Shown here: positions 10,009-39,240 of the stretch, in pieces
Layout: every line of letters begins with the position of its first letter
How positions within the stretch are numbered: the stretch's first letter is position 1
Source of the DNA: Pelosinus propionicus DSM 13327
GTDB taxonomy: Bacteria > Bacillota > Negativicutes > DSM-13327
Length of the DNA: 64,000 nucleotides
Assembly (NCBI RefSeq): GCF_900114615.1
Contig: NZ_FOTS01000012.1
Location: 1-64,000, forward strand
Direction: 5' to 3'
The notes under the pieces: generated by a model
Database searches by the model: none
Told to the model about the DNA's origin: nothing
Seen by the model: only the letters and a program-made list of their open reading frames with translations
Position numbers and translations under genes: made by a program

Positions 10009-10797
10009 ATGATTAACGAAATAACCAGTGAATTAACACGGATTGAATCAGAAAACGGAGTTAAGATTTTATATGCTGTTGAATCTGGCAGCCGGGGTTG
10101 GGGCTTTGCTTCAAAGGATAGCGACTATGATGTGCGGTTTATATATATTCGTCCGTTGGCAGACTATCTTAGTATTGAGGACCACAAGGATTTTATAGAG
10201 GTACCCATCAATAGCCTTTTAGATATTAATGGTTGGGATATTCGAAAAGCTTTGAGATTATATCGAAAATCCAATCCACCACTTATGGAATGGCTGAGTT
10301 CACCTATTGTATATAGAGATGAACATTCCTTGGCTGAGAAGCTTAGAACATTGAGCGTGGAATATTTTTTGCCAGTGCCTTCGCTGCATCATTATTTAAA
10401 CTTGGCAAAAAAGACATTTCAGGAAATGCTTATAACAAAGCAGGTTAGAATTAAGAAGTATTTTTATGTGTTAAGACCCCTTATGGCCTGCAGATGGATT
10501 GATACATACCAAACGATGGCACCTATGGATTTTCATAAGTTAATGGCTGGTCTAAGGATTGAAGAGGATATTCGGGCGGGAATAGACAGTCTGATGGAGC
10601 GCAAGCTTATCAGCATAGAATCCGATATTGAGCCAATCAATCAGCAGTTATATCAGTATTTTAGCGAAACCATTGCTTATTATGAGGATAAAATTCGTCT
10701 TTTACCCAGAAAAGATCATCCAGAAAAAGCAGCATTAGATGCATTATTTTGCAAGATAGTAAAGGAGGCCTGGGCTGGAGAAAGTACATCTAGCTAA
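10009..10797 (+). CDS. Pol-beta-superfamily nucleotidyltransferase, RlaP-like (COG3541/PF10127-type), copy 1
   Basis: GS-x10-DxD signature ESGSRGWGFASKDSDYDVRFIY. This family is described as associated with RtcB RNA-repair operons. Confidence 0.6.
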   Translation: MINEITSELTRIESENGVKILYAVESGSRGWGFASKDSDYDVRFIYIRPLADYLSIEDHKDFIEVPINSLLDINGWDIRKALRLYRKSNPPLMEWLSSPIVYRDEHSLAEKLRTLSVEYFLPVPSLHHYLNLAKKTFQEMLITKQVRIKKYFYVLRPLMACRWIDTYQTMAPMDFHKLMAGLRIEEDIRAGIDSLMERKLISIESDIEPINQQLYQYFSETIAYYEDKIRLLPRKDHPEKAALDALFCKIVKEAWAGESTSS

Positions 10798-10804
10798 AGA
10801 CGTT

Positions 10805-11803
10805 ATGGATATTCAAAAGATCAAAGAGAAAATAAATAGCACAGAATATGATTTCCTACGGAAAAACAGGAATCTTGGTGATAGAATGATTCTACTGACC
10901 ACAGGAGGTTCATATGCCTATGGCACTCATGTGGAAACCAGCGATACTGATATTCGAGGGATTGCTGCAGAACGAAAAGAAGAACTGTTAGGGCTGTCAA
11001 ACTTTGAGCAGTTTGAAGACCGTATTACAGATACGGTAATTTATGGTCTCCGCAAGACCGTAAACCTTGCCCTGGCTGGAAATCCTAATATTTTAGAGAT
11101 GCTGGGCACTCGCGAAGATCACCTGTTGATTTTAACCGACGAAGGCAAATGTTTACGGGATCATGCAGATCTATTTCTATCAAAGAGAGTAATTCAGAGC
11201 TTTGGGAATTATGCCACTGCTCAGCTAAGACGGCTCCAAAATGCACTGGCCCGGGACAGTTATCCCCAAGCAGTAAAGGAACAGCATATGTTAAATAGTA
11301 TACAGGGACAGATGCATCATTTTAAGCAAAAATACCATCAATTTATGAATGAAGAAATTAACCTGTATATCGACAAGTCTAACAAAGAGGATTATGAAGC
11401 AGAGATTTTTATGGATATCAACTTGAAACATTATCCTTTGAGAGATTTTAAATCGATTTACTCAGAGATGAGCAATGTAGTTAAGGATTATTCCCAATTG
11501 AATCACCGCAATAAAAAGAAAGATGCATTGAAATTGAATAAACATGCGATGCATCTGATTCGGCTTCTGATTACAGGTTCAGAGATACTTCAGGGTAAGG
11601 GGATACATACCTATAGAGCTGCTGAGAGGGATTATCTTTTAGAGATTAGAAGTGGGAAATTTACCTATGAAGAGATTTTTGCAGCCGTTGATAAATTAGA
11701 AGCTGAATTCAAATATGCGGCGCAAAATACGGTTCTACCAGATGAACCTAACCATAAGGCAGCAGAGGAGCTTCTCATCTGTATTTATGAAAAAATGCTT
11801 TGA
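10805..11803 (+). CDS. Pol-beta-superfamily nucleotidyltransferase, RlaP-like, copy 2 (diverged paralog)
   Basis: TTGGSYAYGTHVETSDTDIRG is the same GS...DxD signature. Confidence 0.6.
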   Translation: MDIQKIKEKINSTEYDFLRKNRNLGDRMILLTTGGSYAYGTHVETSDTDIRGIAAERKEELLGLSNFEQFEDRITDTVIYGLRKTVNLALAGNPNILEMLGTREDHLLILTDEGKCLRDHADLFLSKRVIQSFGNYATAQLRRLQNALARDSYPQAVKEQHMLNSIQGQMHHFKQKYHQFMNEEINLYIDKSNKEDYEAEIFMDINLKHYPLRDFKSIYSEMSNVVKDYSQLNHRNKKKDALKLNKHAMHLIRLLITGSEILQGKGIHTYRAAERDYLLEIRSGKFTYEEIFAAVDKLEAEFKYAAQNTVLPDEPNHKAAEELLICIYEKML

Positions 11804-11907: not shown

Positions 11908-13017
11908 TCATGAATTCTTAATGGCAAGGAGTGAATTCAATTGTTCAAGCAGACTGCTATTGCCAGTTAAAGAAATATGACCAATTTTATCGCAGATCTT
12001 TTCTAAGAATTCGAGTTCCTTAAGACGGAAGAGGGTTTGATTTTCTTCCATTAGCTTGGCGGTATTTAACAGACTCCTGGTTGATGCCGTTTCTTCCCGG
12101 CGTGTAATCACGTTAGCAAGGGCTTTTTTTTCAGCAATAAGGACTGTATTTAAAATATCCTTAATTTCACCAGGAAGGATAATATCTTTCACACCAGCAA
12201 ACAGAAATTCTACACCGTAATTCGGTCCTTTTTCTTGAAGGGCTTTTAATACATAGGCAGCAATCTCCTGTTTCATCTTTAAAAGGTCGTCAAGCTTACG
12301 TGTTCCCACATATTCGCGCAGAATAAGCTGCAGCAGGATGTATAGTTGTTGCTCGTAATCTTTCACTTCTACTACTACTTTTAAGGCATCGGTTATTTTA
12401 TATTGACAGACGAAATTAAACCGTATTGGTATTTTGTCTTCTGTCATAATTTCCTGGCCGTTAATTTCGATCTCGCGTTTGCGCATATCCACCTTAGTAA
12501 TATCGATCTTGCTGAAACCAAGCCAGAAATAATGTCTGCCTGGCTCAAGAGTACGCTGCAGAATGTTATTGAAAAATAGTATGCCTTTCATATGTGGCTC
12601 AATATCATATACCCCGCAGTAAGGTTTAAGTTGTGGTATAGCAAGCAGATCCTTGTCTATATGATCATGGATTTCTGGATCGCTTATCGTAACAACTGTA
12701 AAAGTATGCTTTTCTAAAGGTGTCCAAAAGGCATACTTTCCAGTGTTAAGAACCACTTGAAATTTATCATTGACATAATGGAAGGCAATTTCCTTGTCTG
12801 CTACATCGATAATAGCAAGCTCGCTGCATAGATCAGCGTCTTGCAAGAACATATCTAAATGATAACCAGCAATGTAAAATGGTTTGGTTATATCTAGAAT
12901 CTCTACTTTAGTTTGAGAAAAGGGTATTATAAAATGTTTCCCAGGTTTTAAATTGCCTCTATAGTTACCATCTTTAAAGAGTATGCCGCGTTCATGGTCT
13001 CTAATTGTTATTCGCAT
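11908..13017 (-). CDS. SPFH/band-7 (stomatin/prohibitin/flotillin-like) domain protein, apparently a tandem SPFH architecture, no TM
   Basis: Two GxxxKxGxHFxxPF-like starts (GILFKDGNYRGNLKPGKHFIIPF; LEPGRHYFWLGF). The C-terminal block VVVEVKDYEQQ...ILREYVGTRKLDDLL...ITRREETAS is typical of SPFH. Confidence 0.6.
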   Translation of the reverse strand: MRITIRDHERGILFKDGNYRGNLKPGKHFIIPFSQTKVEILDITKPFYIAGYHLDMFLQDADLCSELAIIDVADKEIAFHYVNDKFQVVLNTGKYAFWTPLEKHTFTVVTISDPEIHDHIDKDLLAIPQLKPYCGVYDIEPHMKGILFFNNILQRTLEPGRHYFWLGFSKIDITKVDMRKREIEINGQEIMTEDKIPIRFNFVCQYKITDALKVVVEVKDYEQQLYILLQLILREYVGTRKLDDLLKMKQEIAAYVLKALQEKGPNYGVEFLFAGVKDIILPGEIKDILNTVLIAEKKALANVITRREETASTRSLLNTAKLMEENQTLFRLKELEFLEKICDKIGHISLTGNSSLLEQLNSLLAIKNS

Positions 13018-13295
13018 AATGTATCCTCCTCCGAATAAAAAATATGAAAAATTTATGAATATTCATTGTTATACCTTTCTCTTAGGAATCCCACAGACTT
13101 TTTAGCGGAACTTTGATTCAGCATCAAGATTTACTGTACTGAAGACTGCAAAGGGTATAGGCATATGCCTGATCTCTTGACGGTCTTGAGTGCAGTTGAC
13201 TTATGCGGTATCCTCAAAATCACAGAGCCAAAGCCTGCTGCGTGTTTGGCGGTTAGCCGCGAAATACGCAGGGAATTCCTTTGATTCAGGTGTTT

Positions 13296-13323
13296 AAAAA
13301 GGAAAGACTTGAAAGGTCTTTTT
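13296..13323 (-). terminator. Intrinsic terminator (minus strand) ending the structured RNA downstream of rtcB
   Basis: On the minus strand: AAAGAC-CTTTCAA-GTCTTT followed by CCTTTTT. Confidence 0.5.
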
Positions 13324-13497
13324 CATGTGGGGAGTCGAACCCCATTCCCAAAGGGAATTTACCAATGAAGACTCTACCTCTGAGTTAACCGTAGCAGCTA
13401 CGGTGGAGGAATCGAACCTCCGACACTTCAGTTCAGACCGTTCCTTTGGTATACCCTGCAGCAGAGCTGTGGGCACCGCCAGGCTTTTGAAACCTTA
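13324..13497 (-). ncRNA. Candidate Y-RNA-like (YrlA-type) tRNA-mimic ncRNA, possibly two tandem modules
   Basis: The minus-strand transcript holds two perfect T-arm motifs, GGAGG-TTCGATT-CCTCC and (U)GGGG-TTCGACT-CCCC(A). Each is embedded in nested helices (UUCAU/AUGAA closing stem; AUUCCC-UUU-GGGAAU; 7-bp ACCGUAG/CUACGGU hairpin). No anticodon arm or CCA acceptor is present. It lies immediately 3' of rtcB and is followed by a terminator. Confidence 0.4.
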
Positions 13498-13553
13498 GCA
13501 TGAAAAGTAAACGGTAAAATATATCGTAAAATATACTTCCAATAGTAAGGGCT

Positions 13554-14789
13554 TCAACCTTTAACTACACCGATCGTACGAAGTTTTTTTACCGGTGTGA
13601 TAAGATCAAGCTCATTTGCAATAACAGTATCAATATCTTTATAGGAATAGCGTGATTCTTCTGCGATATCAGTTTTACTGTTCTTACCGAGAACAACACC
13701 ACCGCTTTTTAAATCTGTTATTACTTCTTCAACAGAGAAGCTTTCTCTGGCTTTGGTTCTTGACATACGGCGTCCTGCACCATGGGAGCATGAAGTAAAA
13801 CTTTCCGCATTACCTTTGCCTTCGACAAGATAACTATAGGAGCCCATGGCACCAGGTATAATGCCAGTATCGCCTTCACGTGCCCTAATGGCACCTTTTC
13901 TGTGAACCCAGACATTTTTGTCGTAGTGATTTTCAATAGCGGCGTAATTATGATGGCAGTTAATATAACTGGAATACTCTGGTTGTACACCTCCGGAACG
14001 GATGACCCATCCGTCTATCATTCTTGTTATATCACTCATCATTCGGTCCCTGTTTTCCCGAGCAAATGATAATGCTAAATTCATCCAATCAATATAGGAT
14101 TGGCCTTCAACACTATTCACAGGTAAAAAGGCAAGTTGGTAGTTGTCTGGTACAAGAGAGAACCATTGTTGGTTATGTTCTCTTGCCACAGAGTGGAAAA
14201 ATTTACAGATTTGGTGTCCCAGATGTCTGCTGCCAGAGTGTAGCATAATAGCTACCATACCATCTGCATCCTCCTGCAGTTCAATGAAATGATTGCCGCC
14301 ACCTAAGGTACCTATTTGGTAGTAGCTCTTTTCTATTTCGGGAATCAATTCTTTTGCAAAAGAGTATGTATCTATATTGGATAGTGCTGTATCTATTGTG
14401 GATGAGGTTTGCTGCTTCTTATGAGATCTGAATCCTAAAGGAATATTTCGTAAAATGTCGCCAACGATGCCTTGCAGCAATGAACCGTTAGGTGTAGTTG
14501 TATTTTTGAGAAATGCTGCTTCAATATTGGTTTGCATATAAGCCATCCCGCATCCGATATCCACGCCGACAGCGTTGGGAATGACTACGCCATCTGTGGC
14601 AATCACACCGCCGATCGGCATCCCTTTGCCAGTATGTGTATCTGGCATTAGGGCAACCCATTTATGTATAAAAGGAAGATTGGATAGATTAGTAGCTTGC
14701 TCTAAGCATCCTTCTTCTAGAATATCCTTATCACTTAGCCAGACCTTTATTGGGTGGCTGTTTTTTTGTTTGTCATAAATTGTATACAT
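13554..14789 (-). CDS. rtcB: RNA-splicing ligase RtcB (3'-phosphate/5'-OH RNA ligase)
   Basis: GGGNHFIELQ and multiple His/Cys metal ligands; C-terminal ...SHGAGRRMSR. Start at MYTIYDKQ (ATG 14789) after an AAGGAGATGA RBS. The ORF-track start at 14819 is an upstream extension. Confidence 0.85.
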   Translation of the reverse strand: MYTIYDKQKNSHPIKVWLSDKDILEEGCLEQATNLSNLPFIHKWVALMPDTHTGKGMPIGGVIATDGVVIPNAVGVDIGCGMAYMQTNIEAAFLKNTTTPNGSLLQGIVGDILRNIPLGFRSHKKQQTSSTIDTALSNIDTYSFAKELIPEIEKSYYQIGTLGGGNHFIELQEDADGMVAIMLHSGSRHLGHQICKFFHSVAREHNQQWFSLVPDNYQLAFLPVNSVEGQSYIDWMNLALSFARENRDRMMSDITRMIDGWVIRSGGVQPEYSSYINCHHNYAAIENHYDKNVWVHRKGAIRAREGDTGIIPGAMGSYSYLVEGKGNAESFTSCSHGAGRRMSRTKARESFSVEEVITDLKSGGVVLGKNSKTDIAEESRYSYKDIDTVIANELDLITPVKKLRTIGVVKG

Positions 14790-14926
14790 GAAATCATCTC
14801 CTTGGCTATAATTTACCATAGGATTGATCAGGCATCATTAAAAAAAGTTTGCGAACTTCAAGGAGTCGTTGACAATTATTGCTAGGATGATATGATTAAA
14901 ACAACCAAAATGTAAGGGTGATAGAC

Positions 14927-16183
14927 ATGGCCGGATTTACGGAATTAATAAAGAACTTCGATAAAATAAGAGACTATACTAGAGATTTTTTTGTGTACGG
15001 TTATAAGTGTAGAAATGATTACACCAGAAAGAGCGGTAGAAGCTACGATAATGAAAGACGAAGAATAGAGAGCTATCTTTCTGGATACATCAAATGGGAA
15101 ACTAATTCCCGGGGGAAAAATATATTTATCAGCACGGATACGTCGGATCTTTCTAGTAATCCTCTCTTTTCCATGTGGGAGGCAAAATCTTTTACTAAGA
15201 ATGATTGCCTGTTGCATTTTTGCCTGCCTGATATACTAAGGGAAAATCCTGGTTTAACAGCAAAAGATGTGGCAGGTATTTTGAGTGAGCAATACCTGTT
15301 TTGTTTTAATGATTATGATATGTTGGATGTCATGACAGTTCGTAATAAGCTCAATGAATATACAGTTGCTGGTTTATTCAGCACAGAAAAAAAAGGTAAA
15401 ACTTTGCACTATTCCATAAATCAAAGCCTATTCGATCAAGCCGATCCTTCTGTAATAAACAACCTTCTATCTGCTTTGCAGCTTTTTGAGAATGTTGTTC
15501 CCGCTGGGGTTTTGGGCTACTTTATTCGACGGGATAGAGGCAAAAGAGAAGATATATTTTCCTTTCGTCATATCTTCATGTCACACACACTGGATGATGA
15601 GGTATTGATTACGATTGCTAATGCAATGGATTGTAAAAAAAGCATACGCTTTGCAAACTACAGTTCTCGGTCTAAGACCCATTCAGTGGAAACTGTACTT
15701 CCGCTAAAAATTGCTACCAATGTAAGGCATGGACGAAGATTTTTGCTAGCTTATAATCTTAGGATGCGCAGGCCGTTTTCCTATCGCTTGGACTATATTA
15801 AAAACCTTGAAATTTTAGAGGTAAGTGATATCTATGAAGCAAAATTGGCAGAACTTGAAAACCGATTGCCTTTTTCATGGGGAGTAGCCCTTGGCAAAAA
15901 AACGCAGATGGAGAAAGTTGAAGTAATTCTTCATATTGATGAGATAAGGGAAGGATATGTTCTTATAAGACTGAAAAGAGAAGGAAAAAATGGCACAGTT
16001 GAAAAAATAGGATATCATACCTTTGCTTACCGGAATGAAGTGTTTGACACTATGGAAATGGTTCCTTGGCTTCGAACCTTTATTGGGCGAATTATATCTG
16101 TCAAAGGATCGAATAAACCAGTCATTCAGCGGTTTATTGATGATATTGACCGCATGGCAAACTTGTACGACGAAGAGCAGTGA
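14927..16183 (+). CDS. HTH-WYL-domain transcriptional regulator (PafB/PafC/BrxR-like), copy 1
   Basis: WYL-like block IRFANYSSRSKTHSVETVLPLKIATNVRHGRRFLLAYNLRMRRPFSYRLDYIKNLEIL and an N-terminal wHTH-like region. Divergent from rtcB, with a TTGACA-N17-TATGAT promoter at 14865. Confidence 0.55.
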   Translation: MAGFTELIKNFDKIRDYTRDFFVYGYKCRNDYTRKSGRSYDNERRRIESYLSGYIKWETNSRGKNIFISTDTSDLSSNPLFSMWEAKSFTKNDCLLHFCLPDILRENPGLTAKDVAGILSEQYLFCFNDYDMLDVMTVRNKLNEYTVAGLFSTEKKGKTLHYSINQSLFDQADPSVINNLLSALQLFENVVPAGVLGYFIRRDRGKREDIFSFRHIFMSHTLDDEVLITIANAMDCKKSIRFANYSSRSKTHSVETVLPLKIATNVRHGRRFLLAYNLRMRRPFSYRLDYIKNLEILEVSDIYEAKLAELENRLPFSWGVALGKKTQMEKVEVILHIDEIREGYVLIRLKREGKNGTVEKIGYHTFAYRNEVFDTMEMVPWLRTFIGRIISVKGSNKPVIQRFIDDIDRMANLYDEEQ

Positions 16184-16209
16184 GAGTGGTGGAGTAGATA
16201 ACAAATTGT

Positions 16210-17256
16210 ATGGTATATGCGATTAGGCGAAAGGGAGAGGTTTTTATTTTGGAGATTTTTAATGAAATACATAGTCGATATTTTTATATTATAAGTGAAA
16301 TTCTAAAAGCTGCTTCCTTAAGTAGCCTACATAGTAAGGATATTGCTAGGATAGTTGCTAAGTTAGGTTTTGCCGAAACCGCAGTGACCCTGCCCGAAAA
16401 ATTAGTAAATGCGAATGGGGAAGGCTATTTTGTACTGAAAGAAGAGTCTTCCAGATATACGCCAGTCTTAAAAGGCGATCCACCCCTTTTATTAACGGAG
16501 TATCAAAAACGGTGGATTCGAACAATTGTAAAGGATAAACGCTTTTCCCTATTTATAGATGAAAGTCAATATCAGCTTTATGAAGAACTGCTTTCCGGCG
16601 TTGAACCTTTGTATGATAGTCAGCACTTTATAACGGTTGACATGGCCAATGATGGTGATGACTACGAAAGCAAGGAATACAGAGGGATTTTTAAATCAAT
16701 AATGCAGGGTATACAAGATAACAAAATTATTCTCATTACATATGAAAGTGGTAAAGGTAACCGCCTTTCCGCATACTTTGCTCCTTATAAGCTAGAGTAT
16801 TCTATTAAGGATGACAAATTTAGACTATGCGGGATACGAGTTAGGCAAGGTAGAATGAGAAGCCTCTATAAACTAAACCTTTCCCGAATCAGTTCGGTGG
16901 AAGTCATGGAATATAATAGACCAGAAAATCTTGCTAGCTATATTAAAAGCCTTCGTATGCCACTACCAGTAGAAATAGAGATTACAAATGAGCGTAACGG
17001 TTTTGAACGAATCTTTACCCAGTTATCCAACTTTGAGCGTGTTTCAGAATACGATGAAAATACTAAAAGATGTCTAATGAAAATTTATTATTATGAGGTC
17101 GATGAGATGGAACTACTCATAACCCTTCTTTCTTTTGGACCGGTTGTCAAAGTGATTGGTCCCGACCACTTCAAGGAGCAATTAATCGGGCGCATAGCAA
17201 GACAGAAACAATTGCTTACAATGCTAGATGAAAGATATGTAGAAGGTAATTCATGA
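16210..17256 (+). CDS. HTH-WYL-domain transcriptional regulator, copy 2 (probable partner of copy 1)
   Basis: HTH LHSKDIARIVAKLGF. WYL-like block ILITYESGKGNRLSAYFAPYKLEYSIKDDKFRLCGIRVRQGRMRSLYKLNLSRISSVEV. The start may be the TTG at 16249 after an AAGGGAGAGG RBS. Confidence 0.55.
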   Translation: MVYAIRRKGEVFILEIFNEIHSRYFYIISEILKAASLSSLHSKDIARIVAKLGFAETAVTLPEKLVNANGEGYFVLKEESSRYTPVLKGDPPLLLTEYQKRWIRTIVKDKRFSLFIDESQYQLYEELLSGVEPLYDSQHFITVDMANDGDDYESKEYRGIFKSIMQGIQDNKIILITYESGKGNRLSAYFAPYKLEYSIKDDKFRLCGIRVRQGRMRSLYKLNLSRISSVEVMEYNRPENLASYIKSLRMPLPVEIEITNERNGFERIFTQLSNFERVSEYDENTKRCLMKIYYYEVDEMELLITLLSFGPVVKVIGPDHFKEQLIGRIARQKQLLTMLDERYVEGNS

Positions 17257-17286: not shown

Positions 17287-18531
17287 ATGCTAGAAAAAGA
17301 GTTTGTAAGAAAAATCAATAGGATTCATGGTGCGGCATATGTTGTTGGTGGATGGGTTAGAGATTGGATTAGAGGAGTTATCCCTAAAGATAAAGATTAT
17401 GTGATTACTGGTGTGCTTGAAGAGGATTTTAATGAATTGTTTCCACAAACAATTAAAATAGGCAAGTCCTTCCCTGTATATTTGCTAGAAATCAATGGCG
17501 AGTCTTGTGAAATTGCATTTGCCAGGCAGGAACGTAAAACGGGTGTAGGTTATAAGGGGTTTGAGGTTTCCTTTGATAAAAGTATCCGTATTACGGATGA
17601 TCTATATCGTAGAGATACAACGATGAATAGTATTGCCTTTGATTTACAAACGCTTGAACTGATAGATCCATTTCAAGGTAAGCAGCACATTGCTGAACGA
17701 AAGATATTCCCCACTTCACATCATTTCAAAGATGATCCAATTCGGGCGCTGCGAGCAGCGAGACAATCAGCACAGTTTGATTTTTCCATTGATGAATCAA
17801 CAATTGCGTTGATGAAGGAATGCCGGGAAGAATTAACGAGCGAGCCTAAAGAACGATTATTTAATGAACTGGACAAGGCTTTACAATCGAATAAGCCATC
17901 GCTATTTTTCTTAGCATTACAACAGGCTAATTTGTTGGATATCACGTATCCTCCAATTCATGCATTAATTGGACAGACACAACCCGTCCAGTATCACCCA
18001 GAGGGAGATGCCTTTAACCATACCATGGATGTTGTAGATCGGGTCTCGGAGCTCAACCCCAGAATTGAGGTGCGATTTGCAGCATTAGTACATGATCTTG
18101 GCAAGGGACTGACGCCAAAGGAGAAATTGCCAACGCATCATCTGCATGATGTGCTGGGGCTTGATGCCCTAAAGGCGTTCGATAAGCATATTGGATTACC
18201 TAATAAGTGGATAGCATGTGCAGAGTTTGTCATCCAGCACCATATGCGTGTCAATAAATTAAAACAAAAAGGTAAAATCGTTGATTTTATCCTTGCGTTA
18301 CATAAAAATCCAATTGGTGATAAAGGATTTAGTGATGTTTTGCTCGTTGACAATGGAAGTCTGCCAGATTGCTTGCTGAATTTCGAGAAATATATTACTG
18401 CAATTAAGACGGTAAAGGGCAATGATGCACCGAGTGAGTTGCAAGGGAAAGAGATAGGGGATTGGATTAGGCAGCAACAGATTAAAGCATATGGTCAGCA
18501 AAAATGGCTTTCTAAGATTAATGATAGATAA
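17287..18531 (+). CDS. cca: CCA-adding tRNA nucleotidyltransferase (class II Pol-beta NTase with HD domain)
   Basis: N-terminal GGWVRD and head motifs (RRDTTMNSIAF); HD-domain HxxHD (HHLHDVLG). Confidence 0.8.
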   Translation: MLEKEFVRKINRIHGAAYVVGGWVRDWIRGVIPKDKDYVITGVLEEDFNELFPQTIKIGKSFPVYLLEINGESCEIAFARQERKTGVGYKGFEVSFDKSIRITDDLYRRDTTMNSIAFDLQTLELIDPFQGKQHIAERKIFPTSHHFKDDPIRALRAARQSAQFDFSIDESTIALMKECREELTSEPKERLFNELDKALQSNKPSLFFLALQQANLLDITYPPIHALIGQTQPVQYHPEGDAFNHTMDVVDRVSELNPRIEVRFAALVHDLGKGLTPKEKLPTHHLHDVLGLDALKAFDKHIGLPNKWIACAEFVIQHHMRVNKLKQKGKIVDFILALHKNPIGDKGFSDVLLVDNGSLPDCLLNFEKYITAIKTVKGNDAPSELQGKEIGDWIRQQQIKAYGQQKWLSKINDR

Positions 18532-19333
18532 AGGTTTTTAATGAAGTATATTTCTAAGAAGCATCAAGAATAGGGGTGAATCAATAGTCTTAAGTATGAG
18601 AAAGTAATAAATGAATGGGACCCAATTAACTTATAGCAAAGAAAATAGTTGATAATTTATAATCCCAAAGATGTGGGAGGATTTATGGCTTGGATATTTA
18701 TATTATAAGGAAGATTGCGATTTCACAAGGTATCAATTAAAATACAAGTTACTTATTATGGCGTAACGACAAAATGTGAGGAATTAATATCGACCTCATG
18801 CGAAGGGGGGACTAAGGATGAAGAATTACTGGTCATCATTCTGAAAAATTTGATCAGTGCTGCCTTCCAGCCGCTTTCCTTGAAGGTTTTTTAAAATAAA
18901 AAATAAGGATAGTATCCTTGGAAGTGTTTTGTTGGCTACTCATAAAATACTAGTGAATATTTCAAATTTATTACCATTAATTCTGCAATAATAATGCTTG
19001 GCAACAATAATATACTTATGGTAATATATTAGCATATCCTTGGAAATCAGTTTGATAAGTAAAATAATAATGAAACATGCAAACTTATTGAAAGGTAAGG
19101 ACGCAAAGCCATGGGTCTACATACTTTTGTATACGGCTGCCAGGTTGCAATTGCAATCTGGCATTTTTTGTTGTGAATAAAAATAGTTATTATTTAAAAA
19201 TTTTAAAAGTAGGGTTACCATAAAAAAGAATAAATGGTAAAATAATACAACGAATATTAATGCCTGCACAGTGGAAGAAATAGGTACTGTTTGCAATTGA
19301 TCATGTATATTTTATCGGGTGGTGAATTATTGA

Positions 19334-20824
19334 GTGAAAAAAAATTTAATACTATGCTTTGCAATGACAGCAATAATAGGTACATCGACTGGGTATCCCT
19401 TTGGGGGTGAGTGGATGGGAAATGTGGCTTATGCTGCTTCAAACCAGCTTGATAATGTTTCTACTGCTAATTCAGAAAAGTTCAAAGTTGACTTTGCCTA
19501 TGAAATGTCTCAAATTACATCCACAATCGTATCTTCTCAAAATACAAATGTTGAAAGTTTTAAGAGTGAGTTTGCATATGCAACTGCTAAGGTAACAGCA
19601 AAAGTAATGCAATTTATACCTGACTCCCAAAAGAAGGACTTTTCCTATGAAATGGCACAAATTACAACAAAGATAATAAATGATCCAAACTTGAATGTTG
19701 AAAAAGCCAAAGTTGAATTTGCGTACAAAACTGCGCAACTTACAAGCAAAATCATAGCAAGCACAGAGCCGATTACCGTAGGTAATACAACTGCAACTGC
19801 AACTACAAATACAACGACGTTGCTTAGGAATAATGCTGATATTGAGCAAAAATTAGTAGGGAAAGCAAATACGATTTCTGCTAGTCCAAAACCAATGATT
19901 CAGACAAGTGATGTTACTCCGGAGACATATACAAGTCTTTTAAATGAATTGAAGCATGTGGGAGACCACAGAAGTAACTTGGATAATAAGATAAATATTG
20001 ATGGTGAAATTCGTTATCACTACGCATTAAACAGTGGTCTTGGACAAATAGGCAAGGATTCTTCGGGTTTTCGGGCACGTCTTGCTATTGATACGGAATT
20101 TAATAAAGATTGGCGTGTTTACGGAGGTTTGGAAGGCAAGAAAAATATAGTGAATTATGATAATGGTTTTGAGTTTTCCCGCTTATATATAGCTGGCAAA
20201 TTAGGACAATCCATGGTAAAAGCTGGTTCTTTTGGCTATCTCATGGCAGAAGGAAATATTTATGATAGTGATTATGATGGTGTTCGGGCTGATTTCGGTC
20301 GACCAATCAAATACACAGTGAGTTATGGATCCACTAATGATACTCAAAAAACATATATTGCAACTGCACTTTATAATGATTTTGATTATAATCTAGAAGC
20401 TGGTGTTTATCGCAATCAGCTGAATGACAGCAGTAATAGCCGAAACACCATTCGTACCCTTGGCGGCAACTATAATTTCAGTAATTTTAGTTTAGGAGCT
20501 ATGGTTTTGAACTCTAGTCTGAAAGATACAAAAGGTAACCGCAATGGATATGTGTTTAGTTTTAACTATGGTGATCTCAAAACATGGAGACCAGGTACTT
20601 ATGGCGTCTTTGCTAAATATTATAATCAGCCTCAATATACTTATATTTCTCATGGTATGAATGGTTCTGGTAGCAAGATGGGAGGCTTTAGGGGTTATGG
20701 TATAGGTATGAGCTATACCGTTGCTGAAAATTTTGTTGCAGGAATTGAATATTATAGTTTAGCAGATAAAATTAACGGAGACAAAGGCGATACTTGGTGG
20801 AGCCAGTTAACTCAGTATTTTTAA
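19334..20824 (+). CDS. Putative outer-membrane beta-barrel protein with signal peptide, 4 x 22-aa N-terminal repeats and a C-terminal ...QYF
   Basis: GTG start after a GGGTGGTGA RBS. Repeats KVDFAYEMSQITSTIV / FKSEFAYATAKVTAKVMQ / KKDFSYEMAQITTKII / KVEFAYKTAQLTSKII. The C-terminal half alternates hydrophobic residues (beta-barrel-like) and ends in Phe. Confidence 0.5.
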   Translation: MKKNLILCFAMTAIIGTSTGYPFGGEWMGNVAYAASNQLDNVSTANSEKFKVDFAYEMSQITSTIVSSQNTNVESFKSEFAYATAKVTAKVMQFIPDSQKKDFSYEMAQITTKIINDPNLNVEKAKVEFAYKTAQLTSKIIASTEPITVGNTTATATTNTTTLLRNNADIEQKLVGKANTISASPKPMIQTSDVTPETYTSLLNELKHVGDHRSNLDNKINIDGEIRYHYALNSGLGQIGKDSSGFRARLAIDTEFNKDWRVYGGLEGKKNIVNYDNGFEFSRLYIAGKLGQSMVKAGSFGYLMAEGNIYDSDYDGVRADFGRPIKYTVSYGSTNDTQKTYIATALYNDFDYNLEAGVYRNQLNDSSNSRNTIRTLGGNYNFSNFSLGAMVLNSSLKDTKGNRNGYVFSFNYGDLKTWRPGTYGVFAKYYNQPQYTYISHGMNGSGSKMGGFRGYGIGMSYTVAENFVAGIEYYSLADKINGDKGDTWWSQLTQYF

Positions 20825-30000: not shown

Positions 30001-31077
30001 TTAAGAATTGAATAATTTTTTGAAATACTCTTTATTATAGAGTACGCTAGGATGATTAGGAACATATGATTCTGCCTTCTTATTATGTTCTAATGCTAAA
30101 CTGTTTTCGCCAAGTTTGGAATAGCAGACACATAATTGGAGGTGAGGGAGCCAAGTTGAACATGCGTAGTTTTTTAGAGAAGAATGATCATTTGACTCTT
30201 TGAGATCAAGTGCTAGATTATACCAAAATATGGAATTTGAATATTTTTGGGTATTGAGAAAATGGTAGCCAAGTCGGCAGCAGAAATCAGGTCGTGGCGT
30301 ATCATATTCAAAAGACTTATAGATATATTTTAATTTTTGTTGCTCATCACCAATATGACTGAAGCAATCGGCAAGTTTGCCACAGGCAGAAATATTATCT
30401 TCGATCCAGCCCAATTGAGTATTCAGAAAATCTTGGTAATATTGGGCTGCTTTTTCATACATTTGATGATCTACCAATTCATTCCCGTAATAAAAAAGAT
30501 CTCTAGGTGAGAATACTTCGCCATTTGCTAATCGATTCTCATAGATTTTTAAATTACGATCAGCAGTATCACATCTTTCTTTCTTGTGTGTCACAGTGAT
30601 CTCAGAATTGATAACTTTGCCATTTATGGCTAGATATTCATGTACAGCTCCGATCCATTGGAAATTTCGTGTTCTCTTGACTAATCTATTTCTTCGCAAA
30701 CTAGAGACGATATTGCCATTTTCATCAGAGGCTAAGTTATAATTCATTGTCACGGAATCTACGGCTAAATCCAAATCATGCTTTAAAAGTAAAAGCTTTT
30801 GTAAATCATTTTCAAGAAGGACATCGTCGGCATCCAGCCACATAATATAATCCTGTGTGGCATGGCTGAAAGCAAAGTTGCGCGCTGCGCCAAAGTTGTC
30901 AATCCATACAAAGTCGTATACCTTATCGGTATATTGCAATGCAATTTTTTTAGTTGAATCAGTAGATCCTGTATCTACAATAATGATTTCATCCAATCCA
31001 GGTTTGACTGATTCAAGGCAGCGAGCTAAGGTTTCTTCTTCATTTTTCACAATAAGGCATAAGCTGATAGTAATCAA
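30001..31077 (-). CDS. Family-2 glycosyltransferase with C-terminal TPR repeats (SpsA-like); candidate glycosyltransferase for the adjacent collagen-like proteins
   Basis: LCLIVKNEEETLARCLESV...IIIVDTGSTDST and DADD; TPR-like C-terminal half. Confidence 0.7.
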   Translation of the reverse strand: MITISLCLIVKNEEETLARCLESVKPGLDEIIIVDTGSTDSTKKIALQYTDKVYDFVWIDNFGAARNFAFSHATQDYIMWLDADDVLLENDLQKLLLLKHDLDLAVDSVTMNYNLASDENGNIVSSLRRNRLVKRTRNFQWIGAVHEYLAINGKVINSEITVTHKKERCDTADRNLKIYENRLANGEVFSPRDLFYYGNELVDHQMYEKAAQYYQDFLNTQLGWIEDNISACGKLADCFSHIGDEQQKLKYIYKSFEYDTPRPDFCCRLGYHFLNTQKYSNSIFWYNLALDLKESNDHSSLKNYACSTWLPHLQLCVCYSKLGENSLALEHNKKAESYVPNHPSVLYNKEYFKKLFNS

Positions 31078-31192: not shown

Positions 31193-33052
<1,860 letters not shown>

Positions 33053-33064
33053 CTAACCAATGTT

Positions 33065-33103
33065 ATAATATGATAAGTGCAGTAGATATGTGATTATGTT
33101 AAT
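33065..33103 (-). promoter_or_regulatory. Sigma-K-type promoter ATTAACATAATCAC-N17-CATATTATA for collagen gene 1
   Basis: On the coding strand this matches the AC-N17-CATANNNTA mother-cell consensus. The same 14-nt upstream motif and exact 17-nt spacer recur upstream of copies 2 and 3. Confidence 0.45.
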
Positions 33104-33179
33104 GATATAAAATATTGAGTCAATTGTATTCCATAGGAATTAGTGCTTTTATATAAAAGAAATGTTGAAACAAAGCTGT

Positions 33180-34856
<1,677 letters not shown>

Positions 34857-34930
34857 TAGTGAAAATTGCATAGAGAAAGCAGGCCTACGACCAAAATCGA
34901 GGCCTGCCTTGTTATGACATGCAATTGACC

Positions 34931-36924
<1,994 letters not shown>

Positions 36925-37137
36925 AAGAATTGTTTCATTTAAACTAACTATTCAATTTTTAATCTGAATGATATCACGATAGATTAAGTTAGATTGTATG
37001 CTATATTGAAAGCAACAATAACGAGTATGTTAATGAAATATGATGAAAGACATCAAATATAGATAGAGGAATGGAAGAATGCGCCGTTTTCCATTCCTCT
37101 ATCTTGTAGTGATATTGTAAGGCAGTTTTATAATTTT

Positions 37138-39240
<2,103 letters not shown>

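Follow-up and report, generated by a model that had tools for sequence, protein, structure and literature searches.

A tandem pair of HTH-WYL proteins encoded divergently from rtcB in Pelosinus propionicus as a candidate regulator of RNA repair

The 64,000-nucleotide (nt) stretch analysed here in full (hereafter, the window) comprises positions 1 to 64,000 of contig NZ_FOTS01000012.1 of Pelosinus propionicus DSM 13327 and contains an island of RNA-repair genes, at the centre of which two tandem genes on the + strand, here called wylA and wylB, are transcribed divergently from rtcB, the gene for an RNA ligase, on the - strand. Downstream of rtcB in the same leftward unit lie a Y-RNA-like/tRNA-like non-coding RNA (ncRNA) and band7; two tandem rlaP nucleotidyltransferase genes converge on this unit from the left, and a nucleotidyltransferase gene of the CCA-adding family follows wylB on the right (Table 1). 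A preliminary description, made from the letters of the DNA alone, had already placed the two open reading frames (ORFs) and the divergent rtcB correctly, both in coordinates and in order, and our analysis refines two start sites. The nearest sequence relatives come from a Pelosinus metagenome-assembled genome (97%) and from Dendrosporobacter (91%), as befits a Negativicute of the Sporomusaceae type. We consider here the WylA-WylB pair (WylAB) and a conserved box in the rtcB-wylA intergenic region as a candidate sensor-operator system for RNA repair.

The number of relatives found at E ≤ 0.001, 3802 for WylA and 158 for WylB, identifies both as real genes rather than chance ORFs. The wylB ORF opens at ATG 16210; since its homologues begin (M-E-[LI]-F-[SN]-E-I) at TTG 16249, which is preceded by the ribosome-binding site (RBS) AAGGGAGAGG, the TTG is most likely the start codon. 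Likewise, the rtcB ORF opens at ATG 14819, but this codon falls within the conserved extended -10 element TGGTAAATT of the rtcB promoter, homologue alignments begin only at residue 10-11 of the ORF, and ATG 14789 carries a strong RBS (AAGGAG), which makes the latter most likely the true start. The intergenic region therefore spans 14790-14926, correcting the 14820-14926 given previously, and, with the transcription start predicted below, the 5' untranslated region of rtcB would be only ~14 nt long.

Profile searches and predicted folds identify WylA and WylB as helix-turn-helix (HTH)-WYL proteins, probably of the HTH-WYL-WCX class. Pfam WYL recognizes WylA at residues 225-296 with 30.1 bits, above the cut-off of 21.8, whereas in WylB both WYL (14.8 bits) and WCX (16.6 bits against a cut-off of 23.9) score below the Pfam cut-offs; Pfam WCX has no match in WylA, and the NCBIfam search returned no family for either protein. 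The WYL model of PADLOC matches both (E 8.4e-10 for WylA and 6.9e-12 for WylB), the only PADLOC matches for the pair being generic WYL and Cas3c. The family assignment made in the preliminary description is thus upheld by Pfam for WylA, and by PADLOC and the predicted fold for WylB. The AlphaFold2 model of WylB is confident (predicted local distance difference test, pLDDT, of 87) and aligns lengthwise in Foldseek, with probability 1.0, with DriD (E 1.2e-10), PafBC (2.6e-10), BrxR (1.7e-7) and CapW (6e-7), the range being E 1e-10 to 5e-5 with a Cas-associated WYL protein included. The WylA model retrieves the same list of matches, headed by DriD (5e-11) and PafBC (1.4e-10). Both models align lengthwise with DNA-bound DriD, and both include a C-terminal alpha/beta domain covered by the Foldseek alignments (~350 aligned columns), in the place where the Pfam WCX match is sub-cut-off or absent. 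In a profile search of PDB sequences, the best match of WylA was PafB (weak, E 0.0023) and that of WylB the WCX region of PafBC (E 0.0013), with PafC at E 0.31.

At the N-terminal side, residues 13-85 of the WylB model form three confidently predicted helices and a beta-hairpin, and the WylA model has helices at 91-147 and a hairpin at 151-164, with weak sequence matches to ArsR-type proteins (E 0.08-0.36); the models thus predict a winged-HTH module in each protein. The domain order of WylB would be winged HTH, linker, WYL with an invariant DDKFR, and WCX. In WylA, a family-specific N-terminal domain (1-93) precedes the winged HTH (~91-165), a helical linker, the WYL domain and a WCX-like C-terminal domain, so that the protein is ~90 residues longer than typical members of the class. 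The extra domain is the best-conserved part of WylA (72% mean column identity versus 56% overall), contains an invariant RSYDNERRRIE and has 596 relatives among 1.8 billion cluster representatives; similarity to WylB was not detectable, and the 93 residues have no sequence relative in the PDB even at E 10. Its predicted helix-helix-hairpin could be a divergent winged helix, although the model is unreliable in this part.

The pair had been described as paralogous, which appears to hold only remotely: an hhalign comparison of WylA with WylB gave E 2.7e-4 (probability 42%, 20% identity) and covered WYL and WCX only. The same description had quoted degenerate WYL cores as a hint of ligand divergence. 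The motifs are there (GRRFLLAY in WylA and DDKFRLCG in WylB), and the WylA family has GRR[FY]L where PafB has GRWYL, but the change says little about the ligand, because what the family as a whole conserves is a set of basic residues and not the W-Y-L triad (Makarova et al. 2014, PMC4012209). Basic residues of the pair are invariant among homologues, namely R270, R271 and R287 of WylA and K203 and R205 of WylB.

To follow the pair across genomes, we used 80 species-representative genomes recovered by a WylA profile that matches at least 581 genomes. In 78 of the 80, wylB directly follows wylA. Moreover, a search with the WylA N-terminal domain showed that seven of its 596 relatives are 728-855 amino acids (aa) long (P0243, P0257, P0260, P0309, P0315, P0376 and P0377). 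In three of these (P0243, P0257 and P0260; 781-855 aa) a WylA sequence continues into an entire WylB, aligned from residue 2 through the last (BLASTP E 1e-48 to 1e-61), and the other four are further fusion candidates on length alone. One fusion, P0257 (L204, 4097-6487), is encoded in one ORF that diverges from RtcB-Band7, and the box described below lies in the intergenic region. Such natural fusions in a Band7-RtcB context support a PafBC-like heteromer and are good genomic evidence for it; within it the two proteins would interact physically. The earlier comparison with the PafB/PafC pair is thereby reinforced, through the constant adjacency, the fusions and the best, if weak, PDB matches. 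A different fusion was encountered on a metagenome contig: the 589-aa protein P0174 comprises a complete WylB-like sequence followed by a C-terminal RlaP domain, and may be a true fusion or an artefact of assembly or gene calling.

Alignment of the rtcB-wylA intergenic regions revealed an asymmetric 22-bp box, which reads TTCGCAAAC-T6/7-AAATGAT in the rtcB direction (consensus of the intergenic regions, [AT]TCATTTAAAAAAGTTTGCGAA) and is present, always in one orientation, in 38 of 38 such regions. Within the window the box is unique, scoring 33 bits against its matrix compared with 9 for the next site (chance expectation 0.01). In 140 of 157 distinct instances a TAnnnT hexamer lies exactly 18 nt after the box, with a TGn extension in 60, and no comparable spacing peak was found on the opposite flank in the 157 instances. 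This fixed spacing places the box at about -52 to -31 of a sigma-A promoter of rtcB, with its centre near -41.5, and transcription of rtcB would start near 14803. The 3' end of the box itself supplies a weak -35 (ATGATG in the window; ATGATn generally, 3/6 matches), separated from the -10 by a 17-nt spacer. On the other side, the wylA promoter predicted from its sigma-70-type hexamers would put the box at about -48 to -69 from the predicted start of wylA transcription; a TTGAnn hexamer immediately adjoins the box in many of the other loci, and in some (L018, L020, L021 and L023) no more than 13 nt separate it from the wylA start codon. The asymmetry of the box fits two unlike subunits, and its near-invariance is matched by the high conservation of the N-terminal domain of WylA.

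Two other identities of the box were considered and rejected. It does not correspond to a sigma-54 promoter, as there is no GG 10 nt upstream of a GC, the GG-N10-GC pattern is absent from the conserved columns of the box-anchored alignment, and a sigma-A extended -10 lies at fixed spacing. A role at the level of RNA, as an AAAAAAG slippery site or as a hairpin with a U-run behind it, was discarded because the box is intergenic and lacks a conserved hairpin. A search of the intergenic region for inverted and direct repeats yielded weak long-range pairs only, and the viral contig collection contained no exact match to the box.

The genomic neighbourhood of wylAB ties it to RNA repair. An RNA-repair gene occurs within 8 kb of wylAB in 69 of the 80 loci, with RtcB in 50, Band-7 in 38, DUF2828+DUF7788 in 18 and RlaP in 6. 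The divergent partner of wylA is RtcB or, alternatively, a TROVE/vWA-like DUF2828+DUF7788 protein. Where rtcB or band7 lies apart from wylA, the box stays with it in the same orientation, 9-140 nt before rtcB or 380-640 nt before band7, in the latter case with the tRNA-like RNA in between; a separate band7 carries a box of its own, and DUF2828 genes are also preceded by one. For example, a ~505-aa DUF2828+DUF7788 protein is encoded behind a box, on the - strand, in L062 (680-2200), L046 (5634-7148) and L078 (5757-7277), and DUF2828+DUF7788 is likewise the divergent partner in L121, L145, L165 and L186, where rtcB is not beside wylA. The DUF2828+DUF7788 gene is often 300-730 nt downstream of the box, a distance that could accommodate an RNA not yet annotated, perhaps a Y RNA.

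The link was also recovered from the box alone. Scanning metagenome contigs with the pattern TTCGCAAMYTTTTTTWAATGAW gave a redundant set of 120 loci with 122 sites, followed downstream by RtcB (76), Band-7 (13), DUF2828 (4), RlaP (1) or none of these (20), with the contig too short in the remaining 8; of the 114 evaluable sites, 94 thus have an RNA-repair gene downstream, and wylA is the divergent neighbour at 85 of the 122. Some of the 20 sites without such a gene have a -10 at the usual distance and might drive ncRNAs. Another three of the 20, exact 22-bp matches (L107 1195, L163 3081 and L170 297), were treated as unrelated, as they lie 6-9 nt before an unrelated conserved gene (MKKKIIGRVDKVDFP...) and lack the -10 spacing; they probably represent an independently conserved, unrelated sequence of another bacterial group. 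No DNA-repair genes were seen in the regulon defined by the box (RtcB, Band-7 with the tRNA-like RNA, DUF2828 and RlaP). The regulatory link of wylAB to rtcB, which the preliminary description had suggested, is thus strongly supported by conserved synteny and by a box held at a fixed 18 nt from the rtcB -10.

Table 1. Features of the wylAB-rtcB region of the window, with positions counted from the first nucleotide of the window
Feature	Position	Strand	Evidence
Two tandem RlaP nucleotidyltransferase genes	10009-10797 and 10805-11803	+	Pfam RlaP, E 2.6e-87 and 3.2e-20
band7, SPFH/Band-7 protein, last gene of the leftward rtcB-ncRNA-band7 unit	11908-13017	-	Pfam Band_7, E 5e-31
Gap of 536 nt between band7 and rtcB	13018-13553
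Y-RNA-like/tRNA-like ncRNA between rtcB and band7	13344-13450	-	Rfam YrlA, 42.4 bits, E 1.6e-7
rtcB, RNA 3'-phosphate/2',3'-cyclic-phosphate ligase	13554-14789 (ORF opens at 14819)	-	Pfam RtcB, E 3.7e-114
Extended -10 of the predicted rtcB promoter, TGGTAAATT on the - strand	14810-14818	-	Column conservation in box-anchored alignment; 18-nt spacing
Conserved asymmetric 22-bp box, TTCGCAAACTTTTTTTAATGAT as read on the - strand, proposed WylAB operator	14834-14855	-
Predicted sigma-70-type wylA promoter (TTGACA, 16-nt spacer, TATGAT, with TG)	14869-14896	+	Promoter scan, 11/12 matches
wylA, 418 aa	14927-16183	+	ATG with AAGGGTGA before the start
wylB, 335 aa from the probable TTG start	16249-17256 (ORF opens at ATG 16210)	+	Homologue alignment and RBS
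cca-type gene, CCA-adding/poly(A)-polymerase-family nucleotidyltransferase with HD domain	17287-18531	+	Pfam PolyA_pol, PolyA_pol_RNAbd and HD

The ncRNA between rtcB and band7 probably belongs to the predicted band-7-associated 'b7a-tRNA'/YrlA class, a class that was predicted, without experimental validation, as of a 2018 preprint (bioRxiv 10.1101/312249). Its YrlA score compares with an Rfam gathering score of 69, and it contains two T-arm-like hairpins, GGTTCGATTCC and GGTTCGACTCC. Of 40 related loci, 33 have the T-arm motif GGTTCGAnTCC upstream of band7, and ARAGORN predicts odd tRNA-like genes at the equivalent position in L061 and L080. ARAGORN found no tRNA in the window, and Rfam at its gathering thresholds reported only a c-di-GMP-I riboswitch in the window and one borderline tRNA match in nine related loci; since these thresholded scans gave nothing between rtcB and band7, the RNA there remains a sub-threshold YrlA-like match. 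The two rlaP genes, whose family (RNA-ligase-associated Pol-beta) has been characterized biochemically (PMC12776372), are tandem diverged paralogues and neighbours within the repair island; a matrix scan of the window found no box upstream of them. The cca-type gene starts 30 nt downstream of wylB, with no terminator detected between the two in a terminator scan, and is probably co-transcribed with it. Its match to the NCBIfam model for CCA addition/repair is below the cut-off of that model. In the 80-genome comparison it adjoins wylAB in close relatives only; it is a lineage-specific addition to the locus. Promoter and terminator scans around the cca and rlaP genes were otherwise uninformative.

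In three related genomes, genes for transfer-messenger RNA (tmRNA) lie within a few kb of wylAB (L012 14860-15250, L022 7261-7624 and L058 2701-3063). This proximity may be a coincidence; tmRNA is reportedly a frequent substrate of bacterial RtcB (work cited in PMC11090510).

We consider it probable that WylA and WylB constitute a heteromeric, PafBC-like transcription factor of the HTH-WYL-WCX class that controls a regulon of RNA-repair genes. In the mechanism that we propose, the WylAB complex would bind the asymmetric box over the weak -35 of the sigma-A promoter, which in P. propionicus would drive rtcB, the Y-RNA/tRNA-like RNA and band7, and the same box would drive separate band7 and TROVE-like DUF2828 units in other genomes. 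Because the box lies just upstream of the divergent wylA-wylB-cca promoter, the pair would probably also regulate its own operon. The WYL domains would sense RNA damage, most likely in the form of fragments such as cleaved tRNAs with 2',3'-cyclic-phosphate or 5'-OH ends, and ligand binding would switch the complex to an activating form at a class-II-like position. Such a system would be a sigma-A, WYL-based functional counterpart of the sigma-54/CARF regulator RtcR. The suggestion in the preliminary description that a WYL pair might replace the CARF domain of RtcR fits this picture, given that the proteins lack CARF, AAA+ and sigma-54 signatures and that the promoter is of the sigma-A type. 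We infer box binding by WylAB, heteromer formation, activation in preference to repression, and an RNA ligand, with the following reasons for the last two. Activation is favoured by the weakness of the -35, by a box centred near -41.5 and by the nearest fold matches, DriD and PafBC, which are transcription activators according to the titles of their PDB entries. A ligand signalling RNA damage is favoured by a regulon consisting purely of RNA repair and by the analogy with RtcR, whose inducer is tRNA fragments with cyclic-phosphate ends (PMC7790460). In its fullest form, the proposal is that an obligate heteromer activates, from a class-II site on sigma-A promoters, a multi-locus RNA-repair regulon (RtcB, Band-7 with the tRNA-like RNA, DUF2828 with an RNA of its own, and nucleotidyltransferases) across Clostridia and Negativicutes, as an independently evolved counterpart of RtcR/sigma-54; this wider version is possible but less likely than not.

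Several observations weigh against the proposed mechanism. The WylA model is poor (pLDDT 65), particularly at its N-terminus, and the WYL core of WylB carries an invariant acidic pair (DD), which is unusual and does not obviously suit the binding of nucleic acids. Nine of the 80 loci have neither a repair gene nor a box nearby, five of them on contigs shorter than 10 kb, and the metagenome counts overstate independence, since many of the contigs are near-identical gut sequences. As to the direction of control, promoters with an extended -10 can be active in the absence of any activator, and repressors just as typically have sites that overlap the -35. The same regulon and box could accordingly be read with WylAB as a repressor in the manner of BrxR and CapW, positioned over the rtcB -35 and upstream of its own promoter and released by a damage signal. 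BrxR and CapW are homodimeric repressors of anti-phage systems, and both are among the fold matches; the extended -10 occurs in 60 of the 157 box instances; and in the four loci where the box nearly touches the wylA start codon it lies inside the wylA leader, in a roadblock position. What speaks for activation instead is that the -35 within the box is weak (3/6), that a centre at -41.5 is the classical position of class II activators, and that DriD and PafBC are nearer fold matches than the repressors. None of these counterpoints is decisive, and repression is a real possibility, if a somewhat unlikely one.

The nature of the signal is a separate matter, and here the ligand-bound structures of WYL factors that we found (DriD, 8tp8 and 7tzv; CapW, 9c5g) weigh against an RNA ligand, as their titles name single-stranded DNA (ssDNA). 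WylAB might thus regulate the repair genes while sensing ssDNA or DNA damage, like PafBC, DriD and CapW, with RNA repair forming part of a DNA-damage or prophage response. In Salmonella, to judge from the title of one report, expression of the RNA-repair operon controlled by RtcR is linked to the SOS response and Gifsy-1 prophage genes (PMC9879122). We regard an ssDNA ligand as a serious but less likely alternative in view of the box-defined regulon, which comprises RNA-repair components only. WYL domains can, moreover, bind single-stranded RNA, as does WYL1 of Cas13d, which we take to be the protein in PDB 6oaw, one of the fold matches. That Cas-associated match, the WylB-RlaP protein P0174 and the T-tract of the box, which resembles an UP element, could also be accommodated if the box were a core-promoter or UP element, or the site of another factor, and if WylA and WylB were post-transcriptional RNA-binding accessories of an RtcB/Band-7 ribonucleoprotein, as WYL1 is of Cas13d. 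Indeed, the -35 and the T-tract of the box may owe their conservation in part to core-promoter or UP-like function, a further point against the operator we propose. Yet both proteins keep winged-HTH modules, as far as the models predict, and align lengthwise with DNA-bound transcription factors, and the TTCGCAA block of the box is near-invariant, occurs with wylA and has no role in a generic promoter, all of which makes an accessory function very improbable.

Among known systems, PafBC (6sj9, 7p5x and 9fnd), an actinobacterial DNA-damage activator, is the closest parallel to the WylAB transcription factor proposed here: it, too, has two unlike HTH-WYL-WCX subunits encoded in tandem and an asymmetric DNA site whose spacing to the -10 is fixed, and the fold matches reach E ~1e-10. 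The Arthrobacter aurescens PafBC in 6sj9 (chain of ~640-660 residues) is a natural fusion of both subunits. The two systems are not orthologous, with 11-16% identity and sequence E-values of 0.001-0.3, and WylA has the additional 93-aa N-terminal domain. The hosts of WylAB are Negativicutes and Clostridia rather than actinobacteria, a proteasome/Pup context is lacking and the neighbours are RNA-repair genes. The regulon of PafBC is DNA repair; that of WylAB would be RNA repair. The box (TTCGCAAAC-T6-AAATGAT-N18-TAnnnT) also differs, in sequence and in its distance from the -10, from the RecA-NDp motif.

DriD, a Caulobacter WYL activator (8tp8 and 9pfq), is the top fold match of both proteins and shares their predicted HTH-WYL-WCX architecture; to judge from the entry titles it is a ligand-activated activator, as WylAB would be. 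DriD binds a palindromic site as a homodimer, with ssDNA as its signal and an SOS-independent DNA-damage regulon as its target, in contrast to the two different subunits, the asymmetric box and the RNA-repair targets found here. BrxR and CapW, the WYL repressors of BREX (bacteriophage exclusion) and CBASS (cyclic-oligonucleotide-based anti-phage signalling) systems (7qfz, 7t8k, 7tb5 and 9c5g), belong to the same fold class (E 1e-7 to 1e-5); they are encoded beside the operon they control, and ligand binding by the WYL domain governs their DNA binding, as would be the case for WylAB, but the genes linked to WylAB are those of RNA repair and not anti-phage systems.

RtcR, the CARF-AAA+-HTH sigma-54 activator of rtcBA (Hughes et al. 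2020, PMC7790460), resembles WylAB in its position divergent from the rtcB operon and, by analogy, in the expected logic, whereby damaged RNA would induce its own repair. The operon scaffold is Rsr with YrlA in one case and Band-7 with a YrlA-like RNA in the other. The regulators themselves are dissimilar, as Pfam and NCBIfam searches found no CARF or AAA+/Sigma54_activat match in WylA or WylB; the promoter is of the sigma-A type with an extended -10 instead of a GG-N10-GC sigma-54 promoter; and the present system has two subunits and, in place of rtcA, RlaP and CCA-type nucleotidyltransferases.

The RtcB/Band-7/b7a-tRNA module of the window, together with RlaP, is the one predicted by Burroughs and Aravind (2016, Nucleic Acids Res 44:8525), as described in a later preprint (bioRxiv 10.1101/312249). 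Later papers from the Aravind laboratory cite that survey for WYL transcription factors, and according to PMC9503650 factors of the CARF and WYL types may recognize cyclic-phosphate ends of RNAs and control RNA-repair pathways, so that the general idea of WYL factors as regulators of RNA repair is already in print. In the literature that we surveyed, in which Burroughs and Aravind (2016) is represented by citing papers, we found no experimental work on WylA or WylB, and neither the box nor its promoter geometry nor the fusions were described.

Two other parts of the window, unrelated to wylAB, are recorded here. The c-di-GMP-I (cyclic di-GMP) riboswitch reported by Rfam (RF01051, 69.4 bits, E 1.6e-11) occupies 19068-19152 on the + strand, upstream of a 496-aa ORF (19334-20824) that has no Pfam match, a signal-peptide-like N-terminus and a C-terminal aromatic residue typical of outer-membrane proteins. 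Further on, four consecutive genes for proteins with collagen triple-helix repeats, of which two also carry an exosporium-like BclA C-terminal domain, lie at 31193-39231 on the - strand in an island of 51-54% GC, against ~36-43% in the flanking 2-kb windows, with a glycosyltransferase-tetratricopeptide repeat (TPR) gene adjoining at 30001-31077.

To our knowledge, the proteobacterial RtcR/sigma-54 system is the only one in which the induction of RNA repair in bacteria has been worked out, and we know of no regulator or signal of RNA repair in Firmicutes, including many gut Clostridia. The wylAB locus offers a testable system, with a defined sensor pair, single-chain fusions that should lend themselves to biochemical work, a candidate operator of 22 bp set at a fixed place in the promoter, and an in silico regulon that ties together RtcB, Band-7 with its tRNA-like RNA, and TROVE-like modules. 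Should the ligand be RNA, the known ligands of WYL domains from transcription factors would no longer be limited to ssDNA, and the damage-sensing control of RNA repair would be a case of convergent evolution; should it be ssDNA, these bacteria would couple the repair of RNA to DNA-damage or prophage signals. Either way, the system is well defined and widespread, and makes the sensing of RNA damage in Firmicutes directly approachable.

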